The notes under the pieces are model-generated. The model worked only from the letters and a program-made list of their open reading frames with translations. It was not told the origin of the DNA and did no database searches. Of a DNA stretch of 48,885 nucleotides, positions 1 to 44,162 are shown in pieces. Made by a program: the position numbers and the translations under genes. Location: UHGV virus genome UHGV-0858861. One strand, 5' to 3'. The DNA is from a virus. Position 1 is the first letter of the stretch. Every line of letters starts with the position of its first letter.

Positions 1-55
1 TGTTGAGCGTGAGTTTAGATTATGGGCTGATTCTCCAAATTGTGATGCATCAAGA
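1..55. repeat. exact 55-bp duplicate of an internal portal-gene segment (matches 3923-3977)
   Basis: Bases 1-55 are identical to 3923-3977 inside the portal ORF; sequence diverges immediately afterwards and there is no ORF context at the window edge. Confidence 0.85.
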
Positions 56-3555: not shown

Positions 3556-5126
3556 ATATTCTTGATCGAGTTATTGCGCCGTTTTCACCTCAGAGGGCAT
3601 TAAATCGAGCTTTGGCAAGAAAACGGTTAGAGGCACTTGAAGGTATTAATAACCTTGGATATTCACGTCATGGTGCAAGCACTCATAAAAAATCATTAAG
3701 GGGTTGGTTTAGTAAAGCTGGTTCTCCTGATGATGATATTGTTAAAAATATAGATAAATTGCGTGAGCGTTCTCGTGATCTCTTCATGGGAAACCCGCTA
3801 TCGGTTGGCGCAATAAAAACTATCAGGACCAACGTTGTTGGTTCCGGTTTAAAACTAAATGCGAACATTGATGCCGATTTCTTGGGGATGACGCAGGAAG
3901 AAGCGCGAGCATGGGAAAAGCATGTTGAGCGTGAGTTTAGATTATGGGCTGATTCTCCAAATTGTGATGCATCAAGAATGTGTACTTTTGGACAATTGCA
4001 ATCATTGGTCCAAATATCTGCGTTAACATCTGGCGATATATTTGCTGCGCTACCAGTTATTAAGCGTAAGGGTGTTATATATGATTTGTGCGTCTATTTA
4101 ATTGAAGGTGATCGTGTTTGCAATCCAGAGGATCGTTTTATACCAAATCTTTACGGTGGCGTAGAGGTTGGTGAATTTAGCGAGCCTGTGGCGTACTGGG
4201 TTGCAAAACATCACCCAGCCGGGACTTCTGGTTTTGTAACCCGCAAGTGGGAACGTATTCCCGCATATGGGAGTAAAACAGGAAGAAGAAATATTCTGCA
4301 TGTCATGCAGGATTTTGAAAGGCCTGGGCAACGCCGTGGCGTTCCTGTCCTTGCTCCTGTAATTGAAGCATTGAAGCAGTTAGGACGATACACCGATGCT
4401 GAATTGGTTGCTGCGGTTGTGTCAGGGATGTTTACTGTCTTTATTAAAACAGACGCTCCTGATGGACCAGTCGGTGAATCGGGTATCCCTCAGTACGAGC
4501 AGATCGATAACCATGATGATAATACCCAAGAAATGGGGAATGGCTCCATAGTAAGTTTGGGTGAAGGTGAGTCGATAGATACAGCAAATCCCGGGCGACC
4601 AAATACGGCATTTGATGGTTTTGTTGTCGCCATATGCCGTCAAATTGGGGCTGCTTTAGAACTCCCTTACGAACTCTTGGTAAAGCATTTTACAGCAAGT
4701 TATAGCGCAAGCAGGGCCGCATTACTTGAAGCTTGGAAAATGTTCCGTATGCGACGTGACTGGATGGTTCAGTCATTTTGCCAACCGATCTATGAGGAAT
4801 GGTTGGCCGAAGCCGTGGCTAAAGGTCGTGTTATTGCCCCTGGTTTTTTTTATGGGCCTGAATATCGCGCTGCATGGAGTGGCGCTCAATGGTATGGCCC
4901 ATCACAAGGCCAATTAGATCCCCTTAAAGAAGTCAAAGCTGCAAAACTGCGTGTTGAGGAAACATTCTCTACCCGTGAAAAGGAAGCGGCTGAAATGTCA
5001 GGTCTTAACTGGGAAGAAACCGCACAAATTTGTGGCAGAGAAGAGAATGCTCGCCGTGAGTTGGGGCTTATTAATCCTCCTGTTTCTGAGGTAAATGAAC
5101 AAAATATGGAGACTGATGATGCCTAA
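3552..5126 (+). CDS. portal protein (lambda gpB family)
   Basis: 524-aa ORF following gpW-like gene; size and synteny of lambda-family portal. Confidence 0.8.
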   Translation: MNILDRVIAPFSPQRALNRALARKRLEALEGINNLGYSRHGASTHKKSLRGWFSKAGSPDDDIVKNIDKLRERSRDLFMGNPLSVGAIKTIRTNVVGSGLKLNANIDADFLGMTQEEARAWEKHVEREFRLWADSPNCDASRMCTFGQLQSLVQISALTSGDIFAALPVIKRKGVIYDLCVYLIEGDRVCNPEDRFIPNLYGGVEVGEFSEPVAYWVAKHHPAGTSGFVTRKWERIPAYGSKTGRRNILHVMQDFERPGQRRGVPVLAPVIEALKQLGRYTDAELVAAVVSGMFTVFIKTDAPDGPVGESGIPQYEQIDNHDDNTQEMGNGSIVSLGEGESIDTANPGRPNTAFDGFVVAICRQIGAALELPYELLVKHFTASYSASRAALLEAWKMFRMRRDWMVQSFCQPIYEEWLAEAVAKGRVIAPGFFYGPEYRAAWSGAQWYGPSQGQLDPLKEVKAAKLRVEETFSTREKEAAEMSGLNWEETAQICGREENARRELGLINPPVSEVNEQNMETDDA

Positions 5127-18720: not shown

Positions 18721-20511
18721 GTGAGTAAATTATTATTTACGATGACTGACGCCGGGCGTCAGGAGTTGGTTAATGCCAACAAAACAGGAACAAATAAAGT
18801 TGAGATTGTTTCTGTTGGTTTAGGTAGTAGATATTATGTCACGTCAACCTCACAAACAAATATAACAGACGAAATAAAACGACTTACCACAATAGGTGGC
18901 AAAGTTGTTTCCCCTGATACAATTCATGTAACGGCGAAGGATGATAGTAAAGATGAGTATGTTGTCCATACAATAGGATTGTATACAAATAAGGGAAGGT
19001 TGTTTGCTGTATACTCGCAAGAACAAGCAATAATAAATAAAGCATCATCTACTATTGCTTTAATATCAAGTGACATAGCAATTAAGACTCTTGATACTAA
19101 AAATATTACATTTGGTGATATTGAGTTTATTAATCCTCCCGCGACCGAAACTGTTGTTGGGGTTGCAAGATTTGCTAATGAACAAGAAATTGATGCAGGT
19201 ACAGATGATTCCCTTGCTGTTTCAGCAAAGCGGCTTAAGCAAGCCATTGTGAAACATGAGCAATCACGTAATCATCCTGATGCAACTTTAACCTCAAAAG
19301 GCTTTGTTCAACTTAGCAGCGCCACCAATAGCACGTCTGAAACGCTTGCTGCGACGCCTAAGGCTGTTAAGGCAGCATATGACCTGGCTAACGCTAAATA
19401 CACCGCACAGGACGCTACCACGGCGCGAAAAGGGATTGTTCAGCTTAGTAGCGCAACTAACAGCGATTCTGAGACGCTGGCAGCAACGCCAAAGGCGGTA
19501 AAGGCAGCATATGACCTTGCTAACGCTAAATACACCGCACAGGACGCTACCACAGCGCGAAAAGGGATTGTTCAGCTCAGTAGCGCCACCAACAGCACGT
19601 CTGAAACACTGGCCGCGACATCAAAAGCTGTAAAGGTGGTAATGGATGAAACGAACAAGAAAGCGCCCCTGAACAGTCCGGCGCTGAGCGGAACACCAAC
19701 AACACCAACGGCGACTAAGGGAACGAATAACACTCAGATCGCAAGCACAGCTTTCGTTATGGCTGCGATTGCTGAACTTGTAGATTCGTCACCTGATGCA
19801 CTGAACACGCTGAACGAACTGGCTGCGGCGCTGGGCAATGACCCGAATTTTGCGACCACCATGACTAACGCGCTTGCGGGTAAGCAACCGAAGGATGCCA
19901 CCCTGACGGCGCTGGCGGAGCTTGCTACATCAGCAGATAAACTCCCATATTTTACAGGGGCAGATCGTGCCGCGTTAACCGCGTTGACAAGTGTTGGACG
20001 TGCCATTCTTGGTAAAACCAGCACTCAGGGCGTTCTTGATTACCTTGGTTTGGGAGAAGGCTCTGCATTACCGGTTGGTGTGCCTGTTCCGTGGCCTTCA
20101 GCCACACCACCGACAGGCTGGCTGAAATGCAATGGTGCGGCTTTTTCTGCTGAACAATACCCGGAACTGGCAAAGGCTTATCCGACAAATAAATTGCCTG
20201 ATTTACGCGGCGAATTCATTCGTGGCTGGGATGACGGGCGCGGAATTGATACCGGACGTGAGATGCTTTCATATCAGGAAGGCACTATCGTATCCGGGTT
20301 TGATGATAATGATACCGGAGATATCAGTTCACTCAGCTCTACACAATACGGATTTGGTGACACTTTAACCTCTAATCAATGGGCGTCCATAAGTGGCAAA
20401 AGGTGGATATTTGATGCATCCAACAAAGGTGCACAAAAATATGACTGGTGGGCTTATGTTTCAGCTCGCCCGCGCAATATTGCATTTAATTACATCGTGA
20501 GGGCCGCCTGA
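18721..20511 (+). CDS. tail fibre protein (constant N-terminal part plus current C-terminal variable cassette)
   Basis: 596-aa ORF; three tandem ~40-aa repeats (...VQLSSATNS.SETLAATPKAVKAAYDLANAKYTAQDATTARKGI...); 3' end lies inside the invertible segment. Confidence 0.8.
   Translation: MSKLLFTMTDAGRQELVNANKTGTNKVEIVSVGLGSRYYVTSTSQTNITDEIKRLTTIGGKVVSPDTIHVTAKDDSKDEYVVHTIGLYTNKGRLFAVYSQEQAIINKASSTIALISSDIAIKTLDTKNITFGDIEFINPPATETVVGVARFANEQEIDAGTDDSLAVSAKRLKQAIVKHEQSRNHPDATLTSKGFVQLSSATNSTSETLAATPKAVKAAYDLANAKYTAQDATTARKGIVQLSSATNSDSETLAATPKAVKAAYDLANAKYTAQDATTARKGIVQLSSATNSTSETLAATSKAVKVVMDETNKKAPLNSPALSGTPTTPTATKGTNNTQIASTAFVMAAIAELVDSSPDALNTLNELAAALGNDPNFATTMTNALAGKQPKDATLTALAELATSADKLPYFTGADRAALTALTSVGRAILGKTSTQGVLDYLGLGEGSALPVGVPVPWPSATPPTGWLKCNGAAFSAEQYPELAKAYPTNKLPDLRGEFIRGWDDGRGIDTGREMLSYQEGTIVSGFDDNDTGDISSLSSTQYGFGDTLTSNQWASISGKRWIFDASNKGAQKYDWWAYVSARPRNIAFNYIVRAA
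19297..19630 (+). repeat. tandem ~120-bp repeats (about 2.7 copies) within the tail fibre gene
   Basis: Near-identical DNA and protein repeats visible at about 19300-19420, 19420-19540 and 19540-19630. Confidence 0.8.
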
Positions 20512-21113
20512 TGAATAAAGCTGTATTAAATAACGAACTCATTGCCATAAAAGCGGGAGATATTACCGTTTATAATTATGATGGTGAAACGAGGGAATAT
20601 ATTTCCACATCAACCGAATATCTTGCTGTCGGCGTCAGTATCCCGGCATGTTCTTGTCTGGGGGCACCTGGTACACATAAAACTGGTTATGCAATCTGCC
20701 GCTCTGTGGATTTAAATTCATGGGAATATGTACCAGACCATCGCGGTGAAATCGTCTATAGCACCGAAACGGGAGATGCCAAAGAAATCACATCTCCGGG
20801 TGATTACCCTGAAAATACAACCACTATCGCCCCGTTAACGCCATACGATAAATGGGATGGTGAGAAATGGGTGACCGATACTGAGGCACAGCATAGCGCC
20901 GCAGTCGAAGCGGCAGAAGCACAGCGCCAGTCGCTGATTGATGCTGCAATGGCTTCCATCAGTCTGATTCAGCTGAAATTACGGGCCGGGCGGAAGCTGA
21001 CGCAGGCAGAAACCACCCGACTTAACGCTGTGCTGGATTACATTGACGCGGTGGAGGCAACAGATACCAGCACCGCGCCTGATGTCATCTGGCCTGAACT
21101 GCCGGAGGCGTAG
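20511..21113 (+). CDS. tail fibre assembly protein (current orientation)
   Basis: 200-aa ORF immediately after the fibre gene, inside the invertible segment. Confidence 0.65.
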   Translation: MNKAVLNNELIAIKAGDITVYNYDGETREYISTSTEYLAVGVSIPACSCLGAPGTHKTGYAICRSVDLNSWEYVPDHRGEIVYSTETGDAKEITSPGDYPENTTTIAPLTPYDKWDGEKWVTDTEAQHSAAVEAAEAQRQSLIDAAMASISLIQLKLRAGRKLTQAETTRLNAVLDYIDAVEATDTSTAPDVIWPELPEA

Positions 21114-21531
21114 GCCAGACGGGATTTGATGTATCAACGCGCATCAGCAAGACCCGGTATTTTTTCCATTCAGACAACGCGGCGGTTTCTTCTGCCGTCG
21201 CAATTTCCGCATCAAAAGCATCCTGTCTCCAGACTATTTCCTTATCAGCCATAGAACGCAATACCGTTCTTTTCTGTTCAGCCTGAATAATCTGTTGTTC
21301 AGCGGAGAGTGGCGGGATATCAATCCACGCAGGATTACCATCTTTGTCAGCCCCCAGCGTTTTACCTTCTGGTGCTACGCCTGTGTAAATTGCCATTGTT
21401 TCATCATCAACATCAACGCCATTTTCAGGCCATGAACCGGCGCTGATATATACCTCTTTTAGTGCTTTCGGATAGAAAGAGCCTTTATAAAATTTATTCA
21501 TTCTTAATACCCCAGCGCGATAAAACAACAA
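21085..21531 (-). CDS. alternative tail fibre assembly protein (opposite orientation)
   Basis: 148-aa minus-strand ORF inside the invertible segment, convergent with the plus-strand tfa. Confidence 0.6.
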   Translation of the reverse strand: MLFYRAGVLRMNKFYKGSFYPKALKEVYISAGSWPENGVDVDDETMAIYTGVAPEGKTLGADKDGNPAWIDIPPLSAEQQIIQAEQKRTVLRSMADKEIVWRQDAFDAEIATAEETAALSEWKKYRVLLMRVDTSNPVWPTPPAVQAR

Positions 21532-21960
21532 TCTTCGGTGCCCTCTCCGGATGGCGACCAGTTCTGAATACTGATATGCGTTCTGCTGGCAATACGCACA
21601 TTCATCGCGGCATTGTAGCCAGATGTTCCACGGTTTCCGGTCGCAAATAAGCCTGCATAGGGAAAAGCAAATGGTAAGGCATATCCAGCATCAGCTCCCT
21701 TTTGTGTTGCCACCGTTCCCCACTGCAACATAAGTTTCACCGGGTTTCCTGTCGTCGCAATGCATGGAATGTAGATGTAGCCATTCCCTGACATCATTGA
21801 CCTGAAGCTGTCTAAATCCAGTAACTTCGAGGCATTATCTGCTCCAACATCTCGTGTTGCGGCGGTCCCTAACTGGAGCGCATTTCGGAAGGCTGATACA
21901 TCAGAAATATCAGCTCCATTAGCCGATTTCTGCATAGCTCCGGAGGCTTTATTTATCGTT
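21504..21960 (-). CDS. alternative tail fibre C-terminal cassette (promoterless, used after inversion)
   Basis: Minus-strand ORF (track 21504-22013) that passes through the right inverted repeat; lacks an own start inside the segment; Gly/Ala-rich fibre-tip-like sequence. Confidence 0.55.
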
Positions 21961-22034
21961 TCTCCCAAACCAACGTTTAAGAAAATGCAGAGATTACGGC
22001 TAACTGGCATCATCCCCGGTTTTTATTCAGGGGG

Positions 22035-22595
22035 ATGCTCATGCTTATTGGCTATGTACGCGTGTCAACAAATGACCAGAACACGGAATTGCAGCGTAAC
22101 GCGCTGGAGTGCGCAGGATGTGAACTGATTTTTGAAGATAAAATCAGCGGAACGAAATCAGCCAGACCGGGATTGAAAAAACTGCTCAGAACGCTATCAG
22201 AAGGAGATACGCTGGTTGTCTGGAAGCTGGACCGAATGGGGCGTTCCCTGATTCATCTTGTTGATTTACTTAACCATTTTTTATCAAACAACATTGAGTT
22301 TATTTCGATTACGGAAGGGATAAAAATTAGCACTTCAATTGGCCGCTTTGCCTACACGATGCTGAGTGCAGTCGCAGAGATGGAGCGGGAAAATATGATT
22401 GAAAGAACGCGTGCAGGATTGGCGGTGGCAAGGGCTAACGGCAGGATAGGAGGACGCCGCTCAAAGCTGGCACCAGAGCAATGGGAACAGATCGGAAGAC
22501 TTATTGCGAATGGTGTTTCACGTAAGCGGATAGCGATTATCTTCGATGTTACCTTATCCACGCTTTACCGCAGGTTTCCGGCTGGGAATCATTGA
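22035..22595 (+). CDS. serine DNA invertase (Gin/Hin/Cin/Pin family)
   Basis: 186-aa ORF with the resolvase/invertase N-terminal catalytic region (IGYVRVSTNDQN...) and C-terminal HTH; adjacent to the inverted repeat; probable start at 22041. Confidence 0.85.
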   Translation: MLMLIGYVRVSTNDQNTELQRNALECAGCELIFEDKISGTKSARPGLKKLLRTLSEGDTLVVWKLDRMGRSLIHLVDLLNHFLSNNIEFISITEGIKISTSIGRFAYTMLSAVAEMERENMIERTRAGLAVARANGRIGGRRSKLAPEQWEQIGRLIANGVSRKRIAIIFDVTLSTLYRRFPAGNH

Positions 22596-22725
22596 CTGGA
22601 GTTAGGCCAGTAGTATGATGCTCGCAAAACGAGATCCAATTTAGATCCTTTTACTGGTGGATTATCGTTCGATCAGTGAGAGACTTCGTGCATGACCGAA
22701 AGTGTTGTGGTAGAGTTCTCTTAAA

Positions 22726-22740
22726 ACCACGTAACGTGGT
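22726..22740. promoter_or_regulatory. repressor-type operator ACCAC-N5-GTGGT upstream of repA
   Basis: Perfect dyad AACCACGTAACGTGGTT at 22725-22741; same half-sites as the operators in the cI/cro intergenic region. Confidence 0.5.
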
Positions 22741-22782
22741 TATGATTGTGGGTGTCTGGTTGGAAACTGACCAGATATGGAA

Positions 22783-22900
22783 ACAAAAAGCCCGCAGATA
22801 AATCTGCGGGCTTCTTGCGACATCCACGGAAAACCAACAACAACAATCCATGGGCGCCTCGACAACTCCCATTATACGTTGGTTTTCCGTGGACGCAAGA
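22783..22900 (-). ncRNA. candidate CopA-like antisense RNA / structured repA leader
   Basis: Upstream of the probable repA start: hairpin AAGCCCGCAG-ATAAAT-CTGCGGGCTT (22791-22816), which on the minus strand would be followed by a T-run, and 15-bp inverted repeat CCACGGAAAACCAAC / GTTGGTTTTCCGTGG (22825-22839 / 22879-22893). Confidence 0.3.
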
Positions 22901-22908
22901 GCGAACAT

Positions 22909-23757
22909 ATGGATAGACCAATGCCGTCTCTACGTTCCGCTTACGTTTGTAATTTGTCGCCGGAGTTCCAGCCTCCAAAGCACCATACGCACAAGCTGCC
23001 GCTAGTGTTATCTGATGCTTTACAGCGCATTAATGGTCGTGATCTTACGTGTGAGGTTGCGTTCTACGTTAATCAGCCGTCAGAGCGGAAGCGCCGGATA
23101 AACGAGCATCGTCGTCGGGCGATTAATGCTGTGATTGCTGCGATTTTGCACCATGTAAACATCATTTCTAAGCGGGTTCTGGCCAGTGCTGAGGCGTTGG
23201 CTGATTTTTGCGGCCTGTCTACCGTATCCGAAGCTGGGAACAAGTCTATAACACGCTGTACAAGGGCGTTGTCGCAACTGAAAGCGTTAGGTTTTATTGA
23301 TTATGAACGTCGCTGGGATCGGGTGAATAAACAGTATTGGCCAGCGAAAATAGAGATTCGTGATCAACTGCTGGAAACCGTTGGTATTACTGAACAAGCA
23401 TGGAGACGTGCGGTTAGCCAGAAACTTAATTACTTCAATGCGAAGAATAGCGAACGGCTTAAAAAAGCGATAACGGAGGCTGATTATAAGCGTATTGTTA
23501 TTCAGGAGCAGATGGAGAATGTATGGCGTCAGAGGAAGACAGCCAGAGAGATAAAGGCAAAACAGAAAGCAGCGGAGAGAGCTGCGCGTCTTGTTCAGGA
23601 AAAGGGAGAGGCCGAACTTCGTCATCAAATCACTAGAGAGGTTAGCCAGGAATTTGCTGATGGCATGTATCCTGGTGCTGACCTTGCATATTTACGATCC
23701 CTCGTTGAGCAGCGTTATAACAGGTTAAGAAAGACCAGGAAATCACTCCAACATTAA
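22909..23757 (+). CDS. repA: plasmid replication initiator RepA (IncFII RepA1-like)
   Basis: ORF (track 22777-23757; probable start ATG 22909 after the structured leader) with RepA1-like central motif (KSITRCTRALSQLKALGFIDYE) and basic C-terminus. Confidence 0.6.
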   Translation: MDRPMPSLRSAYVCNLSPEFQPPKHHTHKLPLVLSDALQRINGRDLTCEVAFYVNQPSERKRRINEHRRRAINAVIAAILHHVNIISKRVLASAEALADFCGLSTVSEAGNKSITRCTRALSQLKALGFIDYERRWDRVNKQYWPAKIEIRDQLLETVGITEQAWRRAVSQKLNYFNAKNSERLKKAITEADYKRIVIQEQMENVWRQRKTAREIKAKQKAAERAARLVQEKGEAELRHQITREVSQEFADGMYPGADLAYLRSLVEQRYNRLRKTRKSLQH

Positions 23758-23879
23758 CCCACCTGAATGATGAATCCGGTTTTACCGGAGGATTATCTAC
23801 GTCGCAATAAAATATCTGTTCAAAAAACAATCTAAATTAATTTTCTCTAAACCTGAACACAGCAAAAATATCGCCTTCA

Positions 23880-24180
23880 CAGGCATCGGCTAATAAAGTT
23901 ATCCACAGTTTTGATATGTATATGCAAATGGTTTTTTATAATAGATGCACTAAACAAATAAATGCAAAATCACTTTCTTTTATTAAGACTTTCTTTATTT
24001 AACTTACGCAGGCTTTGCCTGTGAATATGTTCGCCCTTGCAGCGAGCTAAAGCTCGCGCCGGTTCGAGTCGCTACGCTCAAATATACCTCCTCCGGCACT
24101 TGCCGGAGGCATGGAGCAGCCTGATCATCCTTTTCGAAACGGCACGTTTCGAACTATACAAAATCAATTTATATAAGGCC
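23880..24180. promoter_or_regulatory. candidate replication origin region (DnaA box, AT-rich stretch, hairpin cluster)
   Basis: Consensus DnaA box TTATCCACA at 23899-23907 followed by AT-rich DNA and four perfect hairpins (GCGAGC-TAAA-GCTCGC; CTCCGGCA-CT-TGCCGGAG; TTCGAAACG-GCA-CGTTTCGAA; AGGCC-N7-GGCCT). Confidence 0.35.
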
Positions 24181-24388
24181 GAAATAAGGCCTACGGCCGG
24201 GCTTTGCAGGAGGAAGGGGCGAGCCTTATCAATAAACGTCGATAAATACGCACACAGTAGCCATCAGAACGCGATAAAACGTAAGAAACATCATTTCCTA
24301 TTAGACATAGAAAACTTGTCTTATACGCAATGTAGTAAATTTCTATTGCCACATAGGAAAAGATTTCCTACCATCGTAGATATAATAA

Positions 24389-25213: not shown

Positions 25214-25567
25214 TTGAGCATGTGGACGGTACTTTTTAGCCAGCGATTTGACGACTGGCTAAATGAGCAAGAAGACGCTCTTCAGGAAAAGGTTTTGGCT
25301 GATTTGAAAAAGCTACAGGTTTACGGACCTGAGTTACCCAGGCCATATGCCGATACCGTAAAAGGTTCTCGGTACAAAAATATGAAAGAGCTTCGCGTTC
25401 AGTTTTCTGGCCGTCCGATAAGAGCCTTTTATGCGTTCGATCCGATTCGCCGGGCCATCGTTCTTTGTGCAGGAGACAAAAGTAACGATAAACGGTTTTA
25501 TGAAAAACTGGTGCGTATAGCTGAGGATGAGTTTGCAGCACATCTGAACACACTGGAGAGCAAGTAA
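25214..25567 (+). CDS. type II toxin, RelE/ParE superfamily (HigB-like, Gp49-type)
   Basis: 117-aa ORF upstream of and overlapping an XRE-HTH gene, i.e. the reversed toxin-then-antitoxin order of HigBA-type modules. Confidence 0.55.
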   Translation: MSMWTVLFSQRFDDWLNEQEDALQEKVLADLKKLQVYGPELPRPYADTVKGSRYKNMKELRVQFSGRPIRAFYAFDPIRRAIVLCAGDKSNDKRFYEKLVRIAEDEFAAHLNTLESK

Positions 25568-25866
25568 TGAGAACATTAGATGAGGTGATTGCCAGCCGTT
25601 CACCTGAAAGCCAGGCGCGAATTAAAGAAATGGCAGATGAGATGATTCTTGAGGTCGGCTTGCAGATGATGCGTGAAGAACTCCAGTTATCACAAAAACA
25701 GGTTGCTGAGGCGATGGGTATAAGCCAGCCAGCAGTAACAAAGCTGGAGCAGCGCGGAAATGATTTAAAGCTGGCGACATTAAAGCGTTACGTTGAAGCT
25801 ATGGGAGGCAAATTAAGCCTAGATGTTGAGCTTCCCACAGGAAAACGAATAGCGTTTAACATCTGA
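25567..25866 (+). CDS. HigA-like antitoxin (XRE-family HTH)
   Basis: 99-aa ORF with HTH (LSQKQVAEAMGISQPAVTKLE) overlapping the toxin stop codon; terminator follows. Confidence 0.55.
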   Translation: MRTLDEVIASRSPESQARIKEMADEMILEVGLQMMREELQLSQKQVAEAMGISQPAVTKLEQRGNDLKLATLKRYVEAMGGKLSLDVELPTGKRIAFNI

Positions 25867-25908: not shown

Positions 25909-25913
25909 TGCTC

Positions 25914-26029
25914 ATAGAATTATATAATTATATATTTATATAAAAAGTGCTTTACGGGTGGGAAAAAATTTCCTAAGGTTATACCCGAAACCGAGCGATA
26001 CCCGCCCTGGTTAAACCGGAGATAACCCG
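25914..26029 (+). promoter_or_regulatory. conserved promoter + 5' leader module, copy 1
   Basis: AT-rich palindromic box (TATATAATTATATA), -35-like TTTACG, dyad GGAAA-AAA-TTTCC in spacer, -10-like TAAGGT, then a conserved 50-nt leader with GGAG SD running to the ATG at 26030; near-identical to copies at 35973 and 44044. Confidence 0.55.
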
Positions 26030-26410
26030 ATGAGCATGATTAAAATCCGCAAAAACGCTTTCCTTAAAATTCAAACTATCCTAGCTGGTTCTGTTGGCGT
26101 GATTTGCCGTTCTTCTTCAAGCCGCATCGATGACGGCTACGATGATGAGTACCGTGTGTCCTCGTGCGATGAGGCTTTAACCTGGCTGAAGGAGAATCAG
26201 GAACGTGCCCAGGTATATCTGGAAACAGAGAACGGCAATCAGATGCTGCGTATTAGCGGTCGTTATGGATTTGAAACTACATTCATGGCCTATTTTAATC
26301 AGGCTTACTTTGACAAGGAGCTGGCCTGGTACACTGATCGCATGAGCAAAAGCGAGCCAGCCCCGATTACACCGCCGAACAATAAACCATTTTTATTCCT
26401 CGTTAAGTAA
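26030..26410 (+). CDS. hypothetical protein, first gene behind module copy 1 (candidate anti-defence protein)
   Basis: 126-aa ORF with no recognisable motif; followed by an Aca2/DUF1870-like HTH gene. Confidence 0.4.
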   Translation: MSMIKIRKNAFLKIQTILAGSVGVICRSSSSRIDDGYDDEYRVSSCDEALTWLKENQERAQVYLETENGNQMLRISGRYGFETTFMAYFNQAYFDKELAWYTDRMSKSEPAPITPPNNKPFLFLVK

Positions 26411-28026: not shown

Positions 28027-28053
28027 AAGCGCCCAAATCGGGCGCTTTGTTTT
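28027..28053. terminator. bidirectional terminator between convergent genes
   Basis: Hairpin GCGCCC-AAATC-GGGCGC flanked by A-rich and T-rich runs. Confidence 0.55.
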
Positions 28054-29194
28054 ATGGTTTTGCACCTGCGGCCAGTTTATCCGCAGATATCTTTATCAGT
28101 TCCTGTAGTGTCCTGGCTGGTAGGTTTGCATCCAGAACGCTGAGTATGCTGTTGTGATCCGCCTGGTCGACTACTTTGCCTGTCGGTGGTAGTAGCTTGA
28201 GCTGAGGATTCAGGTCCTCGTCAAAGCTGATAAGTGCTCTGGCGTTCCTGAGCAGATCAAGAAGTAAGGCTGATATCACATTTTCCTGAGTCATTGCTGG
28301 CAGATTTAGCGCCGCTTTGGTTTTCCCTGTTGCCTTGTCAAACTCCTTGATTAGTTCCTTCCTGTAGTTCGGTTCCGTTAATAGCCGATTATGCTCTGTT
28401 GCCGCGCGGATAATCGTTTTTTCCTGGTACAGTCGTTTAGCCAGATCTCGCTCGTACTGTGTTTTTAACACGCTGCTGATAGCGTTAAAGGCTTCAATGT
28501 AGGCCAGCTTGATATCCTTCACGCCTGGACCGTCGATACTTTCCATGAGCAAGGTAAATCCGTCTTTTGTCATGCGATATATTGTTATTTCGCGGTCGCT
28601 TCCTTCCAGCGGTCGTTGTTCTTTAAAGAAGTGACGCGCCGCAGCCGTGCGAGGAATGCGTAACGCATCGATGGCCATAACGATGGAATTGTTTGTGGTG
28701 CTGAATGCCTGAGCAACATCGGCTGAGGTTGTGAGTGGCTCGTTGTTGCACACCTTAATGTAAAACATCGGTTTGGCGTTGAGCGTATCGACAACCTCAC
28801 GAGCATTGTTTGGCGAGACGGTAACGGTCGCGGCCGTTTGCGCGTTCTGGTTGAAATAGCAGTCTTCCAGCCGTTCGAACACATCCCACGCTTGGTTAGT
28901 TTCAAGCATTTTGGCGTGACGTGCAGCCCCGCGTTCTGTCCAGAGAATTAGGGAGCGGGCATTTTTACCAACTAACCCGATTGTTTCGGGTCTGTTCTTG
29001 AACTCGCGTAATTCGTTTTTTTCAATTTTAAAGTAATGCTTTCCGGCTACGAATCGCGTCGTGTTGTTCAGAAAGTTATCAGAAATGTTTTTGATTTTTG
29101 TTCCGTATAACTGCGCCAGAAGTTCACTAGTGATAACGGGGATCTGGTTATGCAGGATAGGCTGTAGGGTGTTAACGGTCGGAAGCGTTTTCAT
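28052..29194 (-). CDS. antirepressor-like regulatory protein (ORF6N-like N-terminus + Rha-like domain)
   Basis: 380-aa ORF; architecture of phage antirepressor/Rha regulators; coupled to a small upstream ORF. Confidence 0.6.
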   Translation of the reverse strand: MKTLPTVNTLQPILHNQIPVITSELLAQLYGTKIKNISDNFLNNTTRFVAGKHYFKIEKNELREFKNRPETIGLVGKNARSLILWTERGAARHAKMLETNQAWDVFERLEDCYFNQNAQTAATVTVSPNNAREVVDTLNAKPMFYIKVCNNEPLTTSADVAQAFSTTNNSIVMAIDALRIPRTAAARHFFKEQRPLEGSDREITIYRMTKDGFTLLMESIDGPGVKDIKLAYIEAFNAISSVLKTQYERDLAKRLYQEKTIIRAATEHNRLLTEPNYRKELIKEFDKATGKTKAALNLPAMTQENVISALLLDLLRNARALISFDEDLNPQLKLLPPTGKVVDQADHNSILSVLDANLPARTLQELIKISADKLAAGAKP

Positions 29195-29382: not shown

Positions 29383-29439
29383 TGTGATGATTCCCTTAAA
29401 GGTTAAGGATACTCACCACCGTCAGGTTCCAATCATTGG

Positions 29440-29570
29440 GTGGTGAGACGTGCAGGGTTGGAACTACCGGACACAATGACGAACCGGCGAGTCTTACGAC
29501 TCCCCCGCACGCCCCACCATAATTTGGGGGTAGCAGTGCTTTACGCATAAAAAAACCGCTAACGCGGTAT
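29440..29570 (-). ncRNA. candidate c4-like antisense RNA region of an immI-like locus
   Basis: Minus-strand leader carries two hairpin-loop copies of GAUUGGAACC (29424-29433 and 29590-29599) flanking a segment with the complementary GGUAGUUCCAACC (29455-29470), plus a minus-strand terminator hairpin near 29550-29570. Confidence 0.3.
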
Positions 29571-29680
29571 GCGCCATTGTGTCTACGGGGTTCCAATCCC
29601 GGCCGTAGATTTTGCTACGGCTCGGAAAGTGTCCACCAATGGCGCATTCATGTCAATACGGCGGGATTTTAACAGACTAA

Positions 29681-30418: not shown

Positions 30419-30744
30419 CGTGCTGATCGGATTCGCGGTCCTTTCAGCATAACGTCGTTGTACTAATACAACCACGCAAGCACAAACAGCAACTACATTC
30501 TTACCCAACTGAGGTGAATAGTCCACTATTCATATAAAAAAATTTAGCTCATTAGCTCATGCAAAATGAAGGTTTTTAACTTATTTACGTGTAATCTTAT
30601 GTAATAAAAGCGTTTTTTATTCCTTCATTATGAAGGGTATGACGTGTAATATGGCTTGGGGCCTTTCCGCCGATTCGCACCCGGGCACTGACTTTCAGGA
30701 AAGGATTATCCACTTGCCGTACCACGCAGGCACAAACAGCGTGC

Positions 30745-30927
30745 TTGCTCTCGCGTCATTTTCGTCGGTGGGGATGCCGTGAAACGGCCTGTAAGGGCCA
30801 CACAATGAAAAAATACTACATGTGTATTTTTATCGTTGTTACTGGAGCTTTGTTTACGCCACATGGGGAGGGTTGGAAGATTACTGATAACGCTCTGAAT
30901 GTGACGATAAACATTAGCAGCAAGTAG
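30745..30927 (+). CDS. small hydrophobic peptide (about 40 aa from the ATG at 30805)
   Basis: MKKYYMCIFIVVTGALFT... with one predicted TM helix, SD AAGGG upstream, strong terminator immediately downstream. Confidence 0.3.
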   Translation: MLSRHFRRWGCRETACKGHTMKKYYMCIFIVVTGALFTPHGEGWKITDNALNVTINISSK

Positions 30928-30932
30928 CGATT

Positions 30933-30956
30933 AGGCCCCTTCGGGGGCCTTTTTTA
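30933..30956 (+). terminator. strong rho-independent terminator
   Basis: Hairpin AGGCCCC-TTCG-GGGGCCT followed by TTTTTT. Confidence 0.7.
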
Positions 30957-31177: not shown

Positions 31178-31426
31178 TTACTTCTGGTTGTATTGAGCCT
31201 TGAGTAACTCAAAAGATTTTGTCAGCACTTCTTTCAATGACATATCCATTGAGCTGGCGAACGTTTTGTACTCGCGTTTAAATTCAGGGTCGACGTTAAA
31301 CGCCATTTGTGCCCCACCTGATTTGGTTCTGGTTGGCGTTTCAGTCGGGTCGAAAACCTGCGGTTGTTCGATCGATGGCGGTACGCCTTTGCTGTTCTTC
31401 TTTGGTGGTTTTGATGGTGCGGCCAT
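31178..31426 (-). CDS. parG: ParG-like partition protein (ribbon-helix-helix)
   Basis: 82-aa ORF directly downstream of the ParA-type ATPase; C-terminus resembles the ParG RHH region; unstructured basic N-terminus. Confidence 0.5.
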   Translation of the reverse strand: MAAPSKPPKKNSKGVPPSIEQPQVFDPTETPTRTKSGGAQMAFNVDPEFKREYKTFASSMDMSLKEVLTKSFELLKAQYNQK

Positions 31427-31469: not shown

Positions 31470-32138
31470 TTACGCGGCAGTAGTCAGAGCCTCAAGCTGG
31501 TTGATAATCCCCTGAATAACGTCGTCTGCCTTTTTGCGTGGCGCAACGTATGAGCACTCAATGAGGCTTAAGCCCTTATCCTGAGCTTTGCTCAGAGCTG
31601 GCTTGTGGGGAATGTACTTATCAACAACAAAGTATGGCGTATTAGCCAGGTACTCTTGGGCTTCAATATAGTCAGCTTCGTTTTCAGCCGCGCCGGAAAA
31701 CACCATGCAAATTTTCTTGATTGGTACACCCTTTTTAACGATGCCGTGAGCAGTGTTAACGGTGGTTTCTAGGTCATCGGTAGAGAATCTGGTTGGCAAA
31801 ATAACCATATCCAGAAATTCAGAGAGCTTCGGTACTGATTCAGATGCGTAGGCACCGCCATCGACGATAACCAGGTCGTATACTTCTGATTCGATGATTT
31901 TCTGGACTTGTGATGGTGTGCCGCACGGCTGCGCCGCGATTGCTGGTTCGATATTGTTGGCCATTCTGCGTTGTACCCAACGCGTTACCGTTCCGTTAAG
32001 CACATCCATATCGATCAGGCATACATTCCAGCCAGCCTTTGCATAAGCAACTGCTAAAGCACGGGCAATTGTTGATTTGGTTACGCCGCCTTTTCCGTTG
32101 AAAATACCTACAGAGATAGTCATTTGTCGAGACTCCAT
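31470..32138 (-). CDS. parA: ParA/ParF-type partition ATPase
   Basis: 222-aa ORF with deviant Walker A (GKGGVTKST). Confidence 0.8.
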   Translation of the reverse strand: MESRQMTISVGIFNGKGGVTKSTIARALAVAYAKAGWNVCLIDMDVLNGTVTRWVQRRMANNIEPAIAAQPCGTPSQVQKIIESEVYDLVIVDGGAYASESVPKLSEFLDMVILPTRFSTDDLETTVNTAHGIVKKGVPIKKICMVFSGAAENEADYIEAQEYLANTPYFVVDKYIPHKPALSKAQDKGLSLIECSYVAPRKKADDVIQGIINQLEALTTAA

Positions 32139-32270
32139 GTGTTTGGTTATATAATTCTATAAATCTATATTTATAGAACGAGGTAAGCATAACCAACTTT
32201 TTGGCGGATGAAAAGCGTTTTATATAATTATATAAATCTATAATCATATAAGCGGGCGTTAGCCCGCTTG
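32139..32270. promoter_or_regulatory. AT-rich palindromic iterons upstream of parF (candidate centromere/operator)
   Basis: Repeated TATAAATCTATA and TATATAATTATATA motifs at 32157-32185 and 32225-32250; related boxes at 31436-31468 and upstream of the conserved promoter modules. Confidence 0.45.
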
Positions 32271-35972: not shown

Positions 35973-36091
35973 AAATCTATAAATATATAATTATAGATTT
36001 ATATAAAAAGTGCTTTACAGGTGGGAAAAAATTTCCTAAGGTTATACCCGAAACCGAGCGATACCCGCCCTGGTTAAACCGGAGAAATCTG
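35973..36091 (+). promoter_or_regulatory. conserved promoter + 5' leader module, copy 2
   Basis: Near-identical to 25914-26029 and 44044-44162 from the AT-rich box through TTTACA, GGAAAAAATTTCC and the leader to the SD; ATG at 36092. Confidence 0.55.
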
Positions 36092-37159
36092 ATGAATAAA
36101 CAAGTAATTATTTCTGACTGGATCAACAACCCTAACAGCCTGTTAAGCACTGATACTGGCTACCTATTACGCCATGTTAATGGTCGTATGGTCAAAAGCG
36201 ATGAGCACGAAACCTTTTTCTTTGTTGAAGATGATGGGCGTATCTATGAGGATGGTTACTCTTATGAAGCCCAAACTGGTTGTATCCCTGCGGAGCTGGT
36301 GGACGTAACAGAAGATCTGCGCAAAGCATGGCTTGAACAGCAGCAGCGCGGAGATGATTACGTAAACACCTATCAGGAACGCCAGAACGCGCGTCTTGCC
36401 CGATATATTGCTCGTGCAGAAAAAGCCAGAAAAGAAGGTGCGGTAGCGCATAAGCGAGCGCATGACCTGTTGGATGTGATCCCGTTAGGCCAGCCGATTT
36501 TAGTTGACCATTATAGCGCGAAAGGCCATCGCCGCCGTTTGTCTAAAGCTGATGCGTTATTAAGAAAAGCGTTTGTTGAATGCGAAAGTAAAGCATCACA
36601 CTACGAGAGCAAAGCCGCAGGTGTTGGTCGTAATGGAATTTCGTCTGATGATCCTGATGCGCTATTTAAGTTGCTTCGTAAGCTGCAAGGCTGCATGAAG
36701 TCACACGTCAAAATGAAGGCCGCAAATAAGGCCATTCGCAAATACAAAAAAGACCAATTACAGCAGCTTTCTGCATTAATCGATCTCAGGTTTACAGAAA
36801 GCGAAGCCAAAGAGTTACTGGTCGGAGATTTCTGTGGGCGCATCGGATTCCCTTCATACGTACTGAGCAACAATAACGCCGAGATCAAACGACTACAGAG
36901 CCGTATTAAGGAGCTTGAATCGGTCAAGTCTGTAACAGGAGCACAGCGCGAAGAATACGACGACTTTTCTATGGAGATAGATCCAGAGGATAACCGCATC
37001 CTGTTTTATTTCCCTGGCAAACCAGAGGCAAACATTCGTTCGCTGCTTAAATCACGCGCCTTTAAGTGGAGTCCAACCCGTAATGCATGGGTTCGCAAGA
37101 TTACTCCAAATGCCCTGGCTGATGCCCGATATCTGAAAGAATCGCTATTGAAAGCCTGA
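36092..37159 (+). CDS. hypothetical protein with DUF3560-like C-terminus (candidate early/anti-defence protein)
   Basis: 355-aa ORF directly behind module copy 2; C-terminal motif ILFYFPGKPEANIRSLLKSRAFKWSPTRNAWVRK. Confidence 0.4.
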   Translation: MNKQVIISDWINNPNSLLSTDTGYLLRHVNGRMVKSDEHETFFFVEDDGRIYEDGYSYEAQTGCIPAELVDVTEDLRKAWLEQQQRGDDYVNTYQERQNARLARYIARAEKARKEGAVAHKRAHDLLDVIPLGQPILVDHYSAKGHRRRLSKADALLRKAFVECESKASHYESKAAGVGRNGISSDDPDALFKLLRKLQGCMKSHVKMKAANKAIRKYKKDQLQQLSALIDLRFTESEAKELLVGDFCGRIGFPSYVLSNNNAEIKRLQSRIKELESVKSVTGAQREEYDDFSMEIDPEDNRILFYFPGKPEANIRSLLKSRAFKWSPTRNAWVRKITPNALADARYLKESLLKA

Positions 37160-37215: not shown

Positions 37216-37518
37216 ATGTATAAGGACGCCTCGACAATGAAACGCAAAATTATTAACCCCCAAGATGTGATTAATTTCCTGACCGATCACCCATGTTCAA
37301 AAGTGGACGTAATCGCGGAGCACATTGGTGTGTCGCAGAACTCTATGCGTTGCAGACTGAGAAGCATGGTTGCCGAAGGACAGATAACAACCAGGAAAAT
37401 AAATGGTTGCCTGTACTACTCCGCTAAACCGGAATTGCCATTTGGCATGAATTCTAACTCCATGTTGTTTAACACCTTATTAGCCAAAGTTAAGCCGTTG
37501 AGAGGGGCTGTGGCATGA
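37216..37518 (+). CDS. winged-helix DNA-binding protein
   Basis: ORF (probable start 37236) with wHTH-like segment (VDVIAEHIGVSQNSMRCRLRSMVAEGQI); AT-rich box upstream at 37190-37215. Confidence 0.4.
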   Translation: MYKDASTMKRKIINPQDVINFLTDHPCSKVDVIAEHIGVSQNSMRCRLRSMVAEGQITTRKINGCLYYSAKPELPFGMNSNSMLFNTLLAKVKPLRGAVA

Positions 37519-37880
37519 GCATCAAAACCCATACCGGAATAATCATCACCATTGATGGTGAGAAAAAAGTGAAGTTACGCGAAACGCCGACAACTTGGTG
37601 TGTTGGTCCGAAAGAAACATATCGCAAGGAAGATGGGCGCCGTTGTGGGTCGCCACTTTCCAGCCGTCGCCTCCTTTTGAGCACGATAAAACCTATCGGG
37701 CAGGTTGAGCAACCAACGACTCCGGTAACGAAGATTTCAGACAAGAGTCTGGCAAATCTGATCGCAGATGCGGACAAGGTGCTGGAGCGGAACACCCCCG
37801 TTGCAGATGAGGAGTGGTGGCAGGATTTCCGAGCCGCAATGCTAGAGCTTCAGGAACGTCGTCGGGAGGAGTTGAAGTGA
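37515..37880 (+). CDS. hypothetical protein
   Basis: 121-aa coupled ORF. Confidence 0.3.
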   Translation: MSIKTHTGIIITIDGEKKVKLRETPTTWCVGPKETYRKEDGRRCGSPLSSRRLLLSTIKPIGQVEQPTTPVTKISDKSLANLIADADKVLERNTPVADEEWWQDFRAAMLELQERRREELK

Positions 37881-43078: not shown

Positions 43079-43154
43079 GGCCCCTTAGCTCAGTGGTTAG
43101 AGCAGGCGACTCATAATCGCACGGTCATCGGTTCAAATCCGGTAGGGGCCACCA
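43079..43154 (+). tRNA. tRNA with CAU anticodon (elongator-type; ileX-like tRNA-Ile2 or tRNA-Met)
   Basis: 76-nt cloverleaf folded by hand: 7-bp acceptor stem (GGCCCCT/AGGGGCC), D-arm GCTCAGTGGTTAGAGC, anticodon loop CTCATAA, T-loop TTCAAAT, discriminator A and encoded CCA; 1:72 G-C pair excludes initiator type. Confidence 0.85.
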
Positions 43155-43462: not shown

Positions 43463-44050
43463 ATGGAGGCAATTGCATTGTTTAATCTGATTTATGCAGA
43501 TCCCCCCTGGGAATACAAAGACAAGTGTAAGGATGGGAATCGTGGCGCTGGTTTTAAGTATCCAACGATGAAAGCTGAGGAGATTGCTCGTATTCCTGTC
43601 TGGCAGCTTGCTAATCCTGAATCGTGTTTGTTGGCCATGTGGTGGGTTCCGACTCAGCCAGAAGAAGCGTTGCTGGTGGTGAAAGCATGGGGATTCAGGC
43701 TGATGACCATGAAGGGCTTCACATGGAACAAATGTGGTAGCCGACAACCAGATAAGCTGGTGATGGGGATGGGGCATATGACTCGTGCAAACAGTGAAGA
43801 TTGCTTGTTTGCAGTGAAAGGCAAACTACCGACACGTCTTGATGCGGGGATCATTCAGTCGTTTACATCGCCTCGTCTGGAGCATTCTCGGAAGCCTGAT
43901 GTGGTCCGTGACAAGCTGGTAAGGCTGTTAGGTGATGTTCCTCGTATTGAGCTGTTTGCTCGCGGTGATTTACCTGATGGCTGGCATGGCTGGGGCAACC
44001 AGTGCAATGGAGGTATCCAATTGCATGATGCTCTCTGGCAAGTGTCATAG
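43463..44050 (+). CDS. MT-A70-family DNA N6-adenine methyltransferase
   Basis: 195-aa ORF with the catalytic DPPW motif (IYADPPWEY). Confidence 0.75.
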   Translation: MEAIALFNLIYADPPWEYKDKCKDGNRGAGFKYPTMKAEEIARIPVWQLANPESCLLAMWWVPTQPEEALLVVKAWGFRLMTMKGFTWNKCGSRQPDKLVMGMGHMTRANSEDCLFAVKGKLPTRLDAGIIQSFTSPRLEHSRKPDVVRDKLVRLLGDVPRIELFARGDLPDGWHGWGNQCNGGIQLHDALWQVS

Positions 44051-44162
44051 AATTATATAATTATATATTTATATAAAAAGTGCTTTACAGGTGGGAAAAA
44101 ATTTCCTAAGGTTATACCCGGAACCGAGCGATACCCGCCCTGGTTAAACCGGAGATAACCCG
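44044..44162 (+). promoter_or_regulatory. conserved promoter + 5' leader module, copy 3
   Basis: Near-identical to copies 1 and 2 (one substitution in the leader); ATG at 44163. Confidence 0.55.

Follow-up and report, generated by a model that had tools for sequence, protein, structure and literature searches.

An IncFII-like RepA replicon under predicted antisense-RNA control in a tailed phage kept in Escherichia coli as a low-copy plasmid

The DNA analysed here, called the window, is the UHGV virus genome UHGV-0858861 at its full length of 48,885 nucleotides. Next to a DNA invertase gene lies a region (22777-24180) that a preliminary description had read as a plasmid-type replicon inside a phage genome. 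The features that we place in and around it are as follows.

22035-22595, + strand: Hin/Cin-type serine DNA invertase, 186 aa, with a Resolvase N-terminal domain (1.5e-44) and HTH_7
22592-22619, + strand: promoter-like site for repA, TTGACT-16 nt-TATGAT, 10/12 matches to consensus; its -35 hexamer and the stop codon of the invertase overlap
22627-22908, + strand: strongly structured repA mRNA leader of about 280-295 nt, its start placed from the promoter position; target hairpin at 22823-22893
22781-22905, - strand: predicted CopA-like countertranscript of about 115-125 nt, a long hairpin followed by a terminator hairpin (22785-22816) and U tail
22909-23757, + strand: repA, replication initiator, 282 aa (278 aa from the alternative start at 22921)
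23775-23833, + strand: CIS-like spacer with the hairpin TCCGGT/ACCGGA (23775-23789) and a AAAAAACAATCT block (23822-23833)
23899-23907, + strand: DnaA box TTATCCACA, the only perfect copy in the window
23916-24005, + strand: AT-rich origin core with three (A/T)(A/G)ATGCA repeats at 23922, 23945 and 23962
24007-24195, no strand assigned: hairpin cluster of inverted repeats at 24007-24023, 24039-24059, 24090-24109, 24133-24153 and about 24173-24195

The preliminary description named the product of the open reading frame at 22777-23757 (+) an IncFII RepA1-like initiator. That frame exists, and its residues 53-319 match Pfam PF02387 IncFII_repA (E 1.3e-43; 149.9 bits vs 22.9). The protein also matches NCBIfam NF040977 RepA_IncFII_LM (232.2 bits, cut-off 70), both matches to the IncFII superfamily lying above the curated cut-offs. 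It matches phrog_7060 at 2e-121, and in colinear plasmids it bears the RefSeq name 'plasmid replication initiator RepA'. The start at 22777 proved to be too far upstream. The first 130-140 nt of the frame are non-coding leader with a perfect terminator hairpin within, and the in-frame 5' extension is lost in diverged Salmonella relatives, in which the RefSeq RepA has 277 aa. Translation probably begins at ATG 22909, which has the Shine-Dalgarno sequence AAGAG 7 nt upstream, or at ATG 22921. Membership in the superfamily thus stands, but the kinship with classical IncFII RepA is only distant: the protein fails the TIGR03474 incFII_RepA equivalog test (78.3 bits, cut-off 446.9), and in tblastn comparisons it shares 31-40% identity over 29-45% of its length with classical IncFII RepA. 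The nearest RepA outside the family, of the pKPC_UVA01/pCAV1176-34 type, is 37% identical at 94% coverage. A sequence search of solved structures with RepA gave no match. Judged by these comparisons, with identities of 31-37% to the classical IncFII initiators, RepA is only distantly related to them within the IncFII superfamily.

Upstream of repA, the promoter-like hexamers are kept (TTGACT/TATCAT) in the Salmonella relatives, which are about 77% identical overall, and the site at 22592-22619 may serve as the repA promoter. The preliminary description had taken the structured leader as a hint of antisense control, and folding of both strands strengthens that hint. The + strand leader (306 nt) folds at -118 kcal/mol with z = -7.3. 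The minus strand read from 22905 to 22775 folds at -68 kcal/mol with z = -9.5, a value equalled by 0 of 200 shuffles, and gives an RNA of two hairpins that ends in a terminator. The long hairpin of this RNA is the complement of 22823-22893. Its apical loop, which contains GGCG, is invariant in diverged relatives, whereas the internal loop beside it is hypervariable. The consensus fold of the countertranscript is kept in four variants, with covariation amounting to one compensatory pair (G-C to A-U). No CopA or other replication-control RNA family was matched between 22500 and 24450 at the Rfam gathering score or at E <= 10; the sub-threshold Rfam matches on the minus strand are leader and terminator look-alikes, which fit the hairpin-plus-terminator shape. 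When the exact apical-loop 17-mer was used to look for diverged leaders, the 74 matches in genome_contigs were due to chance and came from unrelated GC-rich genomes; viral_contigs gave nine true relatives, with only one new leader variant among them.

Other elements of a classical copy-control region were also sought. A consensus scan for the countertranscript promoter found nothing above threshold; the best site, TAGAGA-17-TATGTT, matches at 8/12 positions and is not kept in the Salmonella relatives. Between the invertase stop codon (22595) and repA there is no candidate copB reading frame, while pCD1, the positive control, has one annotated. The leader reading frames at 22850-23005 and 22746-22916 have no Shine-Dalgarno sequence and no conserved start or end in the Salmonella relatives, and a tap-like leader peptide was rejected because these candidates are not conserved. 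The Salmonella relatives have a 46-codon reading frame that begins at a well-placed ATG and runs into repA in another frame.

IncFII and IncB/I/L-M replicons are subject to translational control through RNA pairing. Genetic data that bear on the same kind of control here come from a preprint on closely related elements, which reports copy-up mutations mapping to a predicted CopA/CopT region upstream of repA; these are concentrated in the predicted loop, and the amount of repA transcript stays the same (10.64898/2026.08.19.745698). Transferred to the window, the mutated positions fall at approximately 22823-22851 or 22835-22863, depending on the repA start used, and either interval lies inside the predicted hairpin. 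This result argues for translational control via RNA pairing. Copy number might instead be set without an antisense RNA, through termination of the sense transcript at 22785-22816, autoregulation by RepA or a protein repressor. The terminator hairpin does form in the sense transcript too, where a partly U-rich tail follows it, the consensus scan yielded no antisense promoter, and one copy-up mutant was mapped to a putative transcriptional regulator according to the same preprint (10.64898/2026.08.19.745698). However, the tail that follows the hairpin on the minus strand makes a far better terminator (UUUUUGUUU vs CUUCUUG), and mutations in a predicted loop that do not alter the repA transcript also speak against this explanation (10.64898/2026.08.19.745698). 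We consider control without an antisense RNA unlikely, and favor a countertranscript acting on the repA leader.

Downstream of repA, the DnaA box and the hairpin cluster noted in the preliminary description were both found, and the region between them was resolved further. In the spacer, the window agrees with the classical, R1-like IncFII replicon L007, whose repA stop codon is likewise followed by the hairpin in its context (AATCCGG...CCGGAGG) and by the 12-mer, and both the hairpin and the AAAAAACAATCT block are conserved in the Salmonella relatives. The DnaA box follows 142 bp past the repA stop, compared with 176 bp in classical IncFII. Its count is not significant (one seen, 0.63 expected); it is supported by its position and by its conservation in relatives, those from Salmonella carrying TTATTCACA, which is compatible with the consensus. 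A DnaA box and an AT-rich region thus lie downstream of repA, as in an oriR of the classical IncFII type. The three ATGCA repeats of the AT-rich core are invariant in the Salmonella relatives and are spaced by 23 and 17 nt; in pCAV1176-34, with a RepA 37% identical, the spacing after a DnaA-like box is 23 and 18 nt. The core is a candidate region for RepA binding and unwinding.

Single-strand DNA folds of the hairpin cluster gave z = -2.8 and -3.1. The hairpin at 24039-24059, which lies within a conserved element (24032-24079), is 100% paired in seven replicons, and three of its eight pairs change on both sides. Its covariation is 0.393 compared with 0.118 in shuffled alignments (0 of 500 reach the observed value) and at most 0.08 when the structure is slid along the sequence. 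The 35-nt core of this element (24032-24066) is found in about 2,500 PLSDB plasmids, including IncFII(K) and Yersinia pestis pCD1, about 370 bp past repA; its flanks are invariant and its three covarying stem pairs vary freely. A comparison of the cluster with a phage collection, made for a G4-type priming signal, gave no match outside the family, and short-word comparison with an R1-like origin gave words at chance level only; we therefore do not call the cluster a G site or a primosome assembly site. Example roles for the 24032-24066 hairpin as an origin component would be a structure-specific priming signal or a helicase-loading signal. We offer only as a rather improbable suggestion that this hairpin is a functionally uncharacterised component of an origin that is the phage's sole one, used for maintenance and for lytic amplification alike; that the RepA origin could serve both states is proposed since the early genes include no recognisable second initiator.

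Set beside classical IncFII replicons (RepFIIA of R1, R100 and NR1, and the relatives pCD1 and IncFII(K)), the window replicon has in common the PF02387 RepA, the origin downstream of repA, one DnaA box at a similar distance, a recognisably homologous hairpin and AAAAAACAATCT block after repA, and copy control by a countertranscript against the repA leader, here predicted. The window replicon also has its covarying origin hairpin in common with IncFII(K), with pCD1 and with an IncFII plasmid from Citrobacter. In contrast to the classical type, the window replicon is without copB, an annotated or conserved tap, or an Rfam CopA match; the origins of pCD1 and R1-like plasmids have TTTAAA-type repeats in place of the putative RepA-binding repeats of ATGCA type, and R1-type origins, that of L007 among them, do not have the 35-nt hairpin element. 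The replicons of pKPC_UVA01 and pCAV1176-34 (MOB-suite rep_cluster_1367), with RepA of the IncL/M type, fall into the same NCBIfam equivalog, NF040977, and their origins have a DnaA-like box, three ATGCA repeats whose spacing matches that in the window, and the hairpin element with its extended TCGCTACGCTC flank. Unlike the window replicon, they are on mobilizable resistance plasmids and not on phages, and their leaders cannot be aligned with that of the window.

Several features elsewhere in the window are of the kind that secures plasmid inheritance.

25117-25144, + strand: dif/cer-like XerCD site, GGTGCCGATAA-CGTCCA-TTATGTTAAAT, differing from dif at 2 of 22 specified positions
25214-25866, + strand: toxin-antitoxin pair, a Gp49/HigB-RelE-type toxin (25214-25567) and an HTH antitoxin (25567-25866)
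31178-31426, - strand: 82-aa protein, candidate centromere-binding partner downstream of parA, a role suggested by position only
31470-32138, - strand: small ParA-type (type Ib, ParF-sized) partition ATPase, 222 aa, with Walker motif and Pfam matches to CbiA/ParA/MipZ

The preliminary description had assigned ParF and ParG genes to the window. The first assignment agrees with our results in that the ATPase is a small Walker ParA of the P-loop ParA/MinD fold family without an N-terminal DNA-binding domain, as is typical of ParF. Repeats of 32 nt are present at 32147-32251. It matches phrog_164, 'ParA-like partition protein', at 2e-39 and the ParF structure 4dzz weakly (E 3e-4), and scores 78.5 bits, below the cut-off of 180, against NF041546 ParA_partition. 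ParG is not demonstrated: the 82-aa protein had no sequence match in Pfam, NCBIfam or the PDB and no likeness to ParG in sequence or fold. Its AlphaFold model, of modest confidence, has a disordered tail (residues 1-40) and two helices (47-59 and 62-81, pLDDT 74-89), an arrangement that a ribbon-helix-helix monomer could have; a Foldseek comparison yielded nothing significant. The dif-like site is the window's best, with a chance expectation that we estimate at about 4e-5. Both of its arms are invariant in the Salmonella relatives while the flanks differ, which makes it a candidate dimer-resolution site. The toxin matches PF05973 (5.7e-23) and the antitoxin HTH_3 (3.9e-10) in Pfam, and RefSeq labels the toxin gene 'type II toxin-antitoxin system RelE/ParE family toxin'.

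From these features we propose the following scheme. The genome would circularise after infection, and repA would be transcribed from the promoter at about 22592-22619 through the leader of about 290 nt. The countertranscript of about 115-125 nt, presumably made constitutively from the opposite strand (22905 to 22781), with its long GGCG-loop hairpin and its terminator hairpin, would pair with the leader hairpin at 22823-22893, the structures being supported by the folds computed here. Such pairing would restrain RepA translation and hold the element at 1-3 copies per chromosome, copy number and copy-up mutations being taken from the preprint. RepA would act on the adjoining downstream origin, with its CIS-like spacer, DnaA box, three ATGCA repeats in the AT-rich core and conserved hairpins, the last probably aiding priming or helicase loading after the DNA is unwound. 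By analogy with IncFII biology, replication may be of the theta type and require host DnaA and the host replisome. Inheritance would be secured by the ParA-type ATPase and its partner, the HigB-type toxin-antitoxin pair, the dif-like XerCD site and possibly a ryfA-type toxin locus.

The state in which this genome is kept was examined by comparison with complete genomes. The window is colinear with the 48,488-bp plasmid of E. coli ATCC 25922, a closed circle, and runs through that plasmid's origin, which answers the question of circularity, and in the same alignment no host DNA was found at either window end. Since the window is the whole circle, an integrase just outside it is impossible. About 42.6 of 48.9 kb (87%) could be aligned, in blocks that are mostly 97-99% identical, with one block at 92% and one (about 0.3 kb net) at 87%; the tail-fibre segment and the accessory regions at about 27.3-28.1 kb and 37.9-40.9 kb differ. 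A survey of 5,426 complete E. coli genomes located the replicon 82 times, in 71 genomes, each time on a plasmid record and never on a chromosome. It is also present in 62 PLSDB plasmids, all non-mobilizable, and MOB-suite gives the colinear plasmid no replicon type. On the same replicon as RepA and ParA, the window further carries all the genes needed for a virion (terminase gpA, portal, protease, capsid, sheath-type tail, baseplate and fibres) together with lysis genes. With virion genes and replication and partition genes together in an extrachromosomal element that has no integration module, it is, on its gene content, a phage-plasmid, as the preliminary description had supposed.

The family to which it belongs is already known. 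Svedholm et al. (bioRxiv, August 2026) reported it as p-p47 (p-p49), and their preprint names CP032086.1 as a member and requires of members an identity of 90% or more across 80% or more of the backbone (10.64898/2026.08.19.745698). The repA region of the window is 99.7% identical to CP032086.1, and the alignment with the ATCC 25922 plasmid, used as reference in place of the preprint's own p-pDA63656_47, places the window within these bounds. Like the family, the window genome is about 47-50 kb, not typeable by MOB-suite, extrachromosomal and of a kind met mostly in E. coli; unlike it, it has no blaTEM-1/Tn3 insert. In the same preprint, copy number is given as 1.2-2.6 per chromosome, the family does not cluster with the P1 groups, and transfer is virion-dependent: it is cell-free, requires a tail gene, being abolished by a tail-gene insertion, and is due neither to conjugation nor to transformation (10.64898/2026.08.19.745698). 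To this our analysis adds the covarying origin hairpin, the conserved dif-like XerCD site, and the ParA-type ATPase with an 82-aa partner that is not demonstrably ParG. We conclude that the window holds the entire genome of a tailed phage kept in E. coli as a low-copy plasmid by an IncFII-like RepA replicon under predicted antisense-RNA control. With a probability of roughly 0.9, the region at 22777-24180 is the replicon by which a temperate, cos-packaging, never-integrating member of the p-p47 phage-plasmids is maintained as a plasmid.

The window might instead be a plasmid carrying a defective prophage remnant that forms no infectious particles. All 62 PLSDB relatives are entered simply as plasmids, and, in the preprint, mitomycin C and ciprofloxacin gave no induction and particles could not be imaged from a clean background; against this stands the cell-free transfer that a tail-gene insertion removes (10.64898/2026.08.19.745698). 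In addition, three near-identical genomes, their replicons 98-99% identical, were deposited as phages isolated or propagated on Y. pestis EV76, and the complete terminase-to-tail-fibre module of the window is colinear with them at 98-99%. We therefore hold a defective remnant to be very unlikely and retain the reading of a true phage-plasmid.

The preliminary description had seen no integrase. Scans of the non-structural reading frames against Pfam, NCBIfam and PHROGs likewise gave none, tyrosine or large serine, and RefSeq annotates none on the colinear plasmid. The sole recombinase of the window is the invertase at 22035-22595, annotated 'DNA-invertase hin' in phage vB_YpM_44; as judged from its sequence and from the opposed tail-fibre and assembly genes that it adjoins (20511-22013), it serves tail-fibre switching and is not an integrase. 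That the window is an integrating prophage with an integrase missed or lying beyond it, RepA being a passenger, is scarcely credible: temperate phages mostly integrate, and among 81 matches to the head-gene module in complete E. coli genomes one belongs to a chromosome record, but apart from that record this explanation leans only on the general rule. Against it, the window joins up end to end when aligned with circular plasmids, neither a tyrosine nor a large serine recombinase appears in any scan or in RefSeq, and none of the 82 replicon places is chromosomal.

The lineage, which about 1.3% of complete E. coli genomes carry, is widespread and has only lately been named. Its members can carry resistance genes and amplify them through copy-number mutations. 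Correct annotation has practical value because phage databases list RepA as 'hypothetical' or of 'unknown function' and plasmid databases list the element as a plain non-mobilizable plasmid. The present, refined map provides defined experimental targets (repA start, countertranscript, origin repeats, covarying hairpin and Xer site) and leaves the general understanding of such elements unchanged.

Phage P1 has an iteron-controlled RepA, ParA/ParB/parS partition, Cre/lox dimer resolution and a separate lytic replicon. The window differs from it in its IncFII-superfamily RepA with predicted antisense control, its small ParA and its host XerCD-type site, with no Cre. Like P1, it is a low-copy plasmid prophage with partition and addiction modules and a Cin/Hin-type invertible tail-fibre segment, and it likewise has a C4 antisense RNA upstream of an antirepressor gene.

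E. coli ATCC 25922 carries a closed circular plasmid of 48,488 bp with which the window is colinear, and the alignment runs through the origin of that record. The window ends lie ~186 bp apart on the plasmid circle, and no host DNA was found at either end in this alignment. Scans of all sizeable non-structural ORFs detected no tyrosine or large serine recombinase, and RefSeq annotates no integrase on the colinear plasmid either. The sole recombinase is a 186-aa Hin-type invertase, encoded beside opposed tail-fibre genes. Of 5,426 complete E. coli genomes, 71 carry the replicon, at 82 places that all lie on plasmid records. The head module was on plasmids at 80 of 81 places; the remaining match to this head-morphogenesis module is in a chromosome record and may represent an integrated or partial relative. 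All 62 relatives in PLSDB are non-mobilizable plasmids of ~47–52 kb. Over the replicon region, the window is 98–99% identical to three genomes whose deposits describe phages propagated on Y. pestis EV76 and label the RepA gene hypothetical. Circular colinearity, the absence of an integrase, a plasmid-only replicon and the phage deposits support the preliminary description, which had read the element as an episomal phage-plasmid.

The element is a member of the p-p47 phage-plasmid family, which has already been described. An August 2026 bioRxiv preprint (10.64898/2026.08.19.745698) presents p-p49, a 49-kb E. coli phage-plasmid, groups 118 elements as the p-p47 family and names CP032086.1 as a member; this plasmid (our match H13) is 99.7% identical to the window replicon. 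The preprint reports that cell-free transfer depends on a tail gene and gives 1.2–2.6 copies per chromosome; it does not discuss origin, partition, Xer or toxin–antitoxin functions. Useful annotation details provided here are refined coordinates, a covarying origin hairpin and a Xer site.

The ORF at 22777–23757 (+), proposed earlier to encode an IncFII RepA1-like initiator, exists. RepA residues 53–319 match Pfam IncFII_repA (E = 1.3e-43), and NCBIfam NF040977 (RepA_IncFII_LM) gives 232 bits against a cut-off of 70. On TIGR03474, the equivalog for classical IncFII RepA, the protein scores 78 bits against a cut-off of 447, and in tblastn classical IncFII RepA is 31–40% identical to it over a third to half of the length. 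Therefore, the designation holds at the superfamily level only and does not extend to classical IncFII. The nearest RepA outside its own family, on pKPC_UVA01/pCAV1176-type plasmids, is 37% identical.

The initial 130–140 nt of the ORF are non-coding leader. This part contains a perfect 10-bp GC-rich hairpin (22785–22816), and the upstream frame is broken by indels in the Salmonella relatives, which are diverged (~77% identical in the region). RefSeq gives RepA in these relatives 277 aa, with a first Met that aligns with window 22921. An in-frame ATG at 22909 has the better ribosome-binding context, being preceded by AAGAG at 7 nt; its counterpart in the Salmonella type lies in another frame, where it starts a 46-codon ORF overlapping repA. 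In L005, a Salmonella salamae plasmid (CP053324.1), the RepA frame is open from the conserved start for 183 codons, compared with 277 in the relatives L004 and L099, which may reflect a truncated repA or a sequencing error. Our annotation of this region is:

22592–22619, promoter-like site TTGACT-16-TATGAT, both hexamers kept in the Salmonella relatives
22909–23757, + strand, repA (alternative start 22921)

The leader, previously called structured and suggestive of antisense control, indeed has a much more stable fold than shuffled versions (z = −7.3). The opposite strand, from 22905 to 22775, forms two folded elements (−68 kcal/mol, z = −9.5, 0 of 200 shuffles as good). The first element of this predicted countertranscript is a 20-bp stem with GAGGCGCC in its apical part, and the second is a predicted textbook intrinsic terminator with the tail UUUUUGUUU. 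Rfam did not recognise the countertranscript as CopA. The four distinct variants compared all have the same apical loop; the internal loop beside it is hypervariable, with indels, and at one stem pair both sides change, from G–C to A–U. This comparison lends limited support to the countertranscript hairpin. Neither a copB gene nor a conserved tap-like peptide was found. A repA start at 22909 or 22921 puts the copy-up positions of the preprint at 22823–22851 or 22835–22863, and both ranges fall within the hairpin predicted here. In its mode of action the element resembles antisense-controlled replicons of the IncFII/IncL-M type, and it is not a classical IncFII member.

Two features of the spacer past the repA stop, a TCCGGT/ACCGGA hairpin and the AAAAAACAATCT block, also follow repA in a classical IncFII replicon. 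The downstream DnaA box is the single perfect one in the window (23899–23907), 142 bp past the repA stop compared with 176 bp in the classical replicon; as 0.63 such boxes are expected, the count by itself is not significant. The Salmonella relatives keep it as TTATTCACA. Next comes an AT-rich core with three ATGCA repeats (23922, 23945 and 23962). In pCAV1176-34, the DnaA-like box is followed by these repeats at the same spacing; pCD1 and R1-type origins instead have TTTAAA-type repeats at this place. We infer that the ATGCA repeats are RepA-binding sites matched to the diverged initiator.

The hairpin cluster, also noted earlier, is real and spans 24007–24195. The core of its hairpin at 24039–24059 occurs in ~2,500 PLSDB plasmids, among them IncFII(K) and Yersinia pestis pCD1; in these it is found ~370 bp past genuine IncFII repA genes. 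Across seven replicons, 8 of 8 pairs are always formed; the three inner pairs vary among several Watson–Crick combinations, and the flanks do not vary. Covariation scores 0.393, compared with 0.118 for shuffles, of which 0 of 500 score as high, and ≤0.08 in slid controls. No link between the cluster and a known priming signal was found; we infer a role at the origin.

Partition, dimer-resolution and addiction features are as follows:

31470–32138, − strand, ParA-type ATPase, 222 aa
25117–25144, + strand, dif/cer-like XerCD site GGTGCCGATAA-CGTCCA-TTATGTTAAAT, perfect XerD arm
25214–25866, Gp49/HigB-type toxin and HTH antitoxin

Of the ParF/ParG pair proposed at the outset, the ParA-type ATPase is present, and ParG found no match by sequence or fold in the 82-aa protein that follows it. 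This protein occurs only in close relatives, and its model, a disordered tail and two helices, is compatible with a ribbon–helix–helix fold without proving it. Upstream of the parA-like gene, a 32-nt AT-rich sequence occurs twice in direct orientation (32147–32178 and 32220–32251; 88% identity, 73 bp apart), possibly as a centromere or operator. Both arms of the XerCD site are invariant in the diverged Salmonella relatives and its flanks differ; it is likely a plasmid dimer-resolution site. Such a site would offer host-dependent dimer resolution, which fits the lack of a phage recombinase. A full-length ryfA RNA match (30657–30955, +; Rfam RF00126, 134.6 bits, gathering score 80) adjoins the partition genes and is overlapped by a 60-codon ORF with a hydrophobic stretch (30745–30927). 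This locus may be a type I toxin, a further addiction module.

A ~120-bp element is present in three nearly identical copies (+) at 25913–26033, 35979–36096 and 44042–44167. Each copy combines an AT-rich TTATATAATTATATATTTATATAA block with a promoter-like TTTACA-17-TAAGGT and a common 5′ leader that ends in GGAGA and ATG; as the copies stand before different genes, the element looks like a repeated regulatory cassette. The parA-like gene also has a similar AT-rich motif upstream, and the 32-nt repeats there resemble the AT-rich block of the cassette. C4 antisense RNA (77.8 bits) and isrK RNA (70 bits) matches at 29436–29621 (−) immediately precede an ORF6N/Rha antirepressor gene (28052–29194, −), an immunity region in the style of P1/P7 in a phage otherwise unrelated to P1.

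Window 1–55 is an exact copy of 3923–3977, inside the portal gene. Bases 1–43 do not extend the circle that related plasmids show, and the ATCC 25922 plasmid has ~186 bp (37366–37550) with no window counterpart. An assembly artefact, at a contig end close to the packaging site, is the probable cause. An invertible tail-fibre host-range module occupies 20511–22595, where the Hin-type invertase gene (22035–22595) adjoins tail-fibre C-terminus and assembly genes in two sets of opposite orientation. The tail-fibre segment at 19960–22115 gave no blastn match to the ATCC 25922 plasmid and could not be aligned. A tRNA gene (43079–43151, +; Rfam tRNA, 67 bits) lies among late and accessory genes. The C-terminal half of a DUF3560 protein (36092–37159, +) matches the primase-annotated phrog_19458 (1.7e-35); apart from RepA, nothing else hints at a replication function encoded by the phage.
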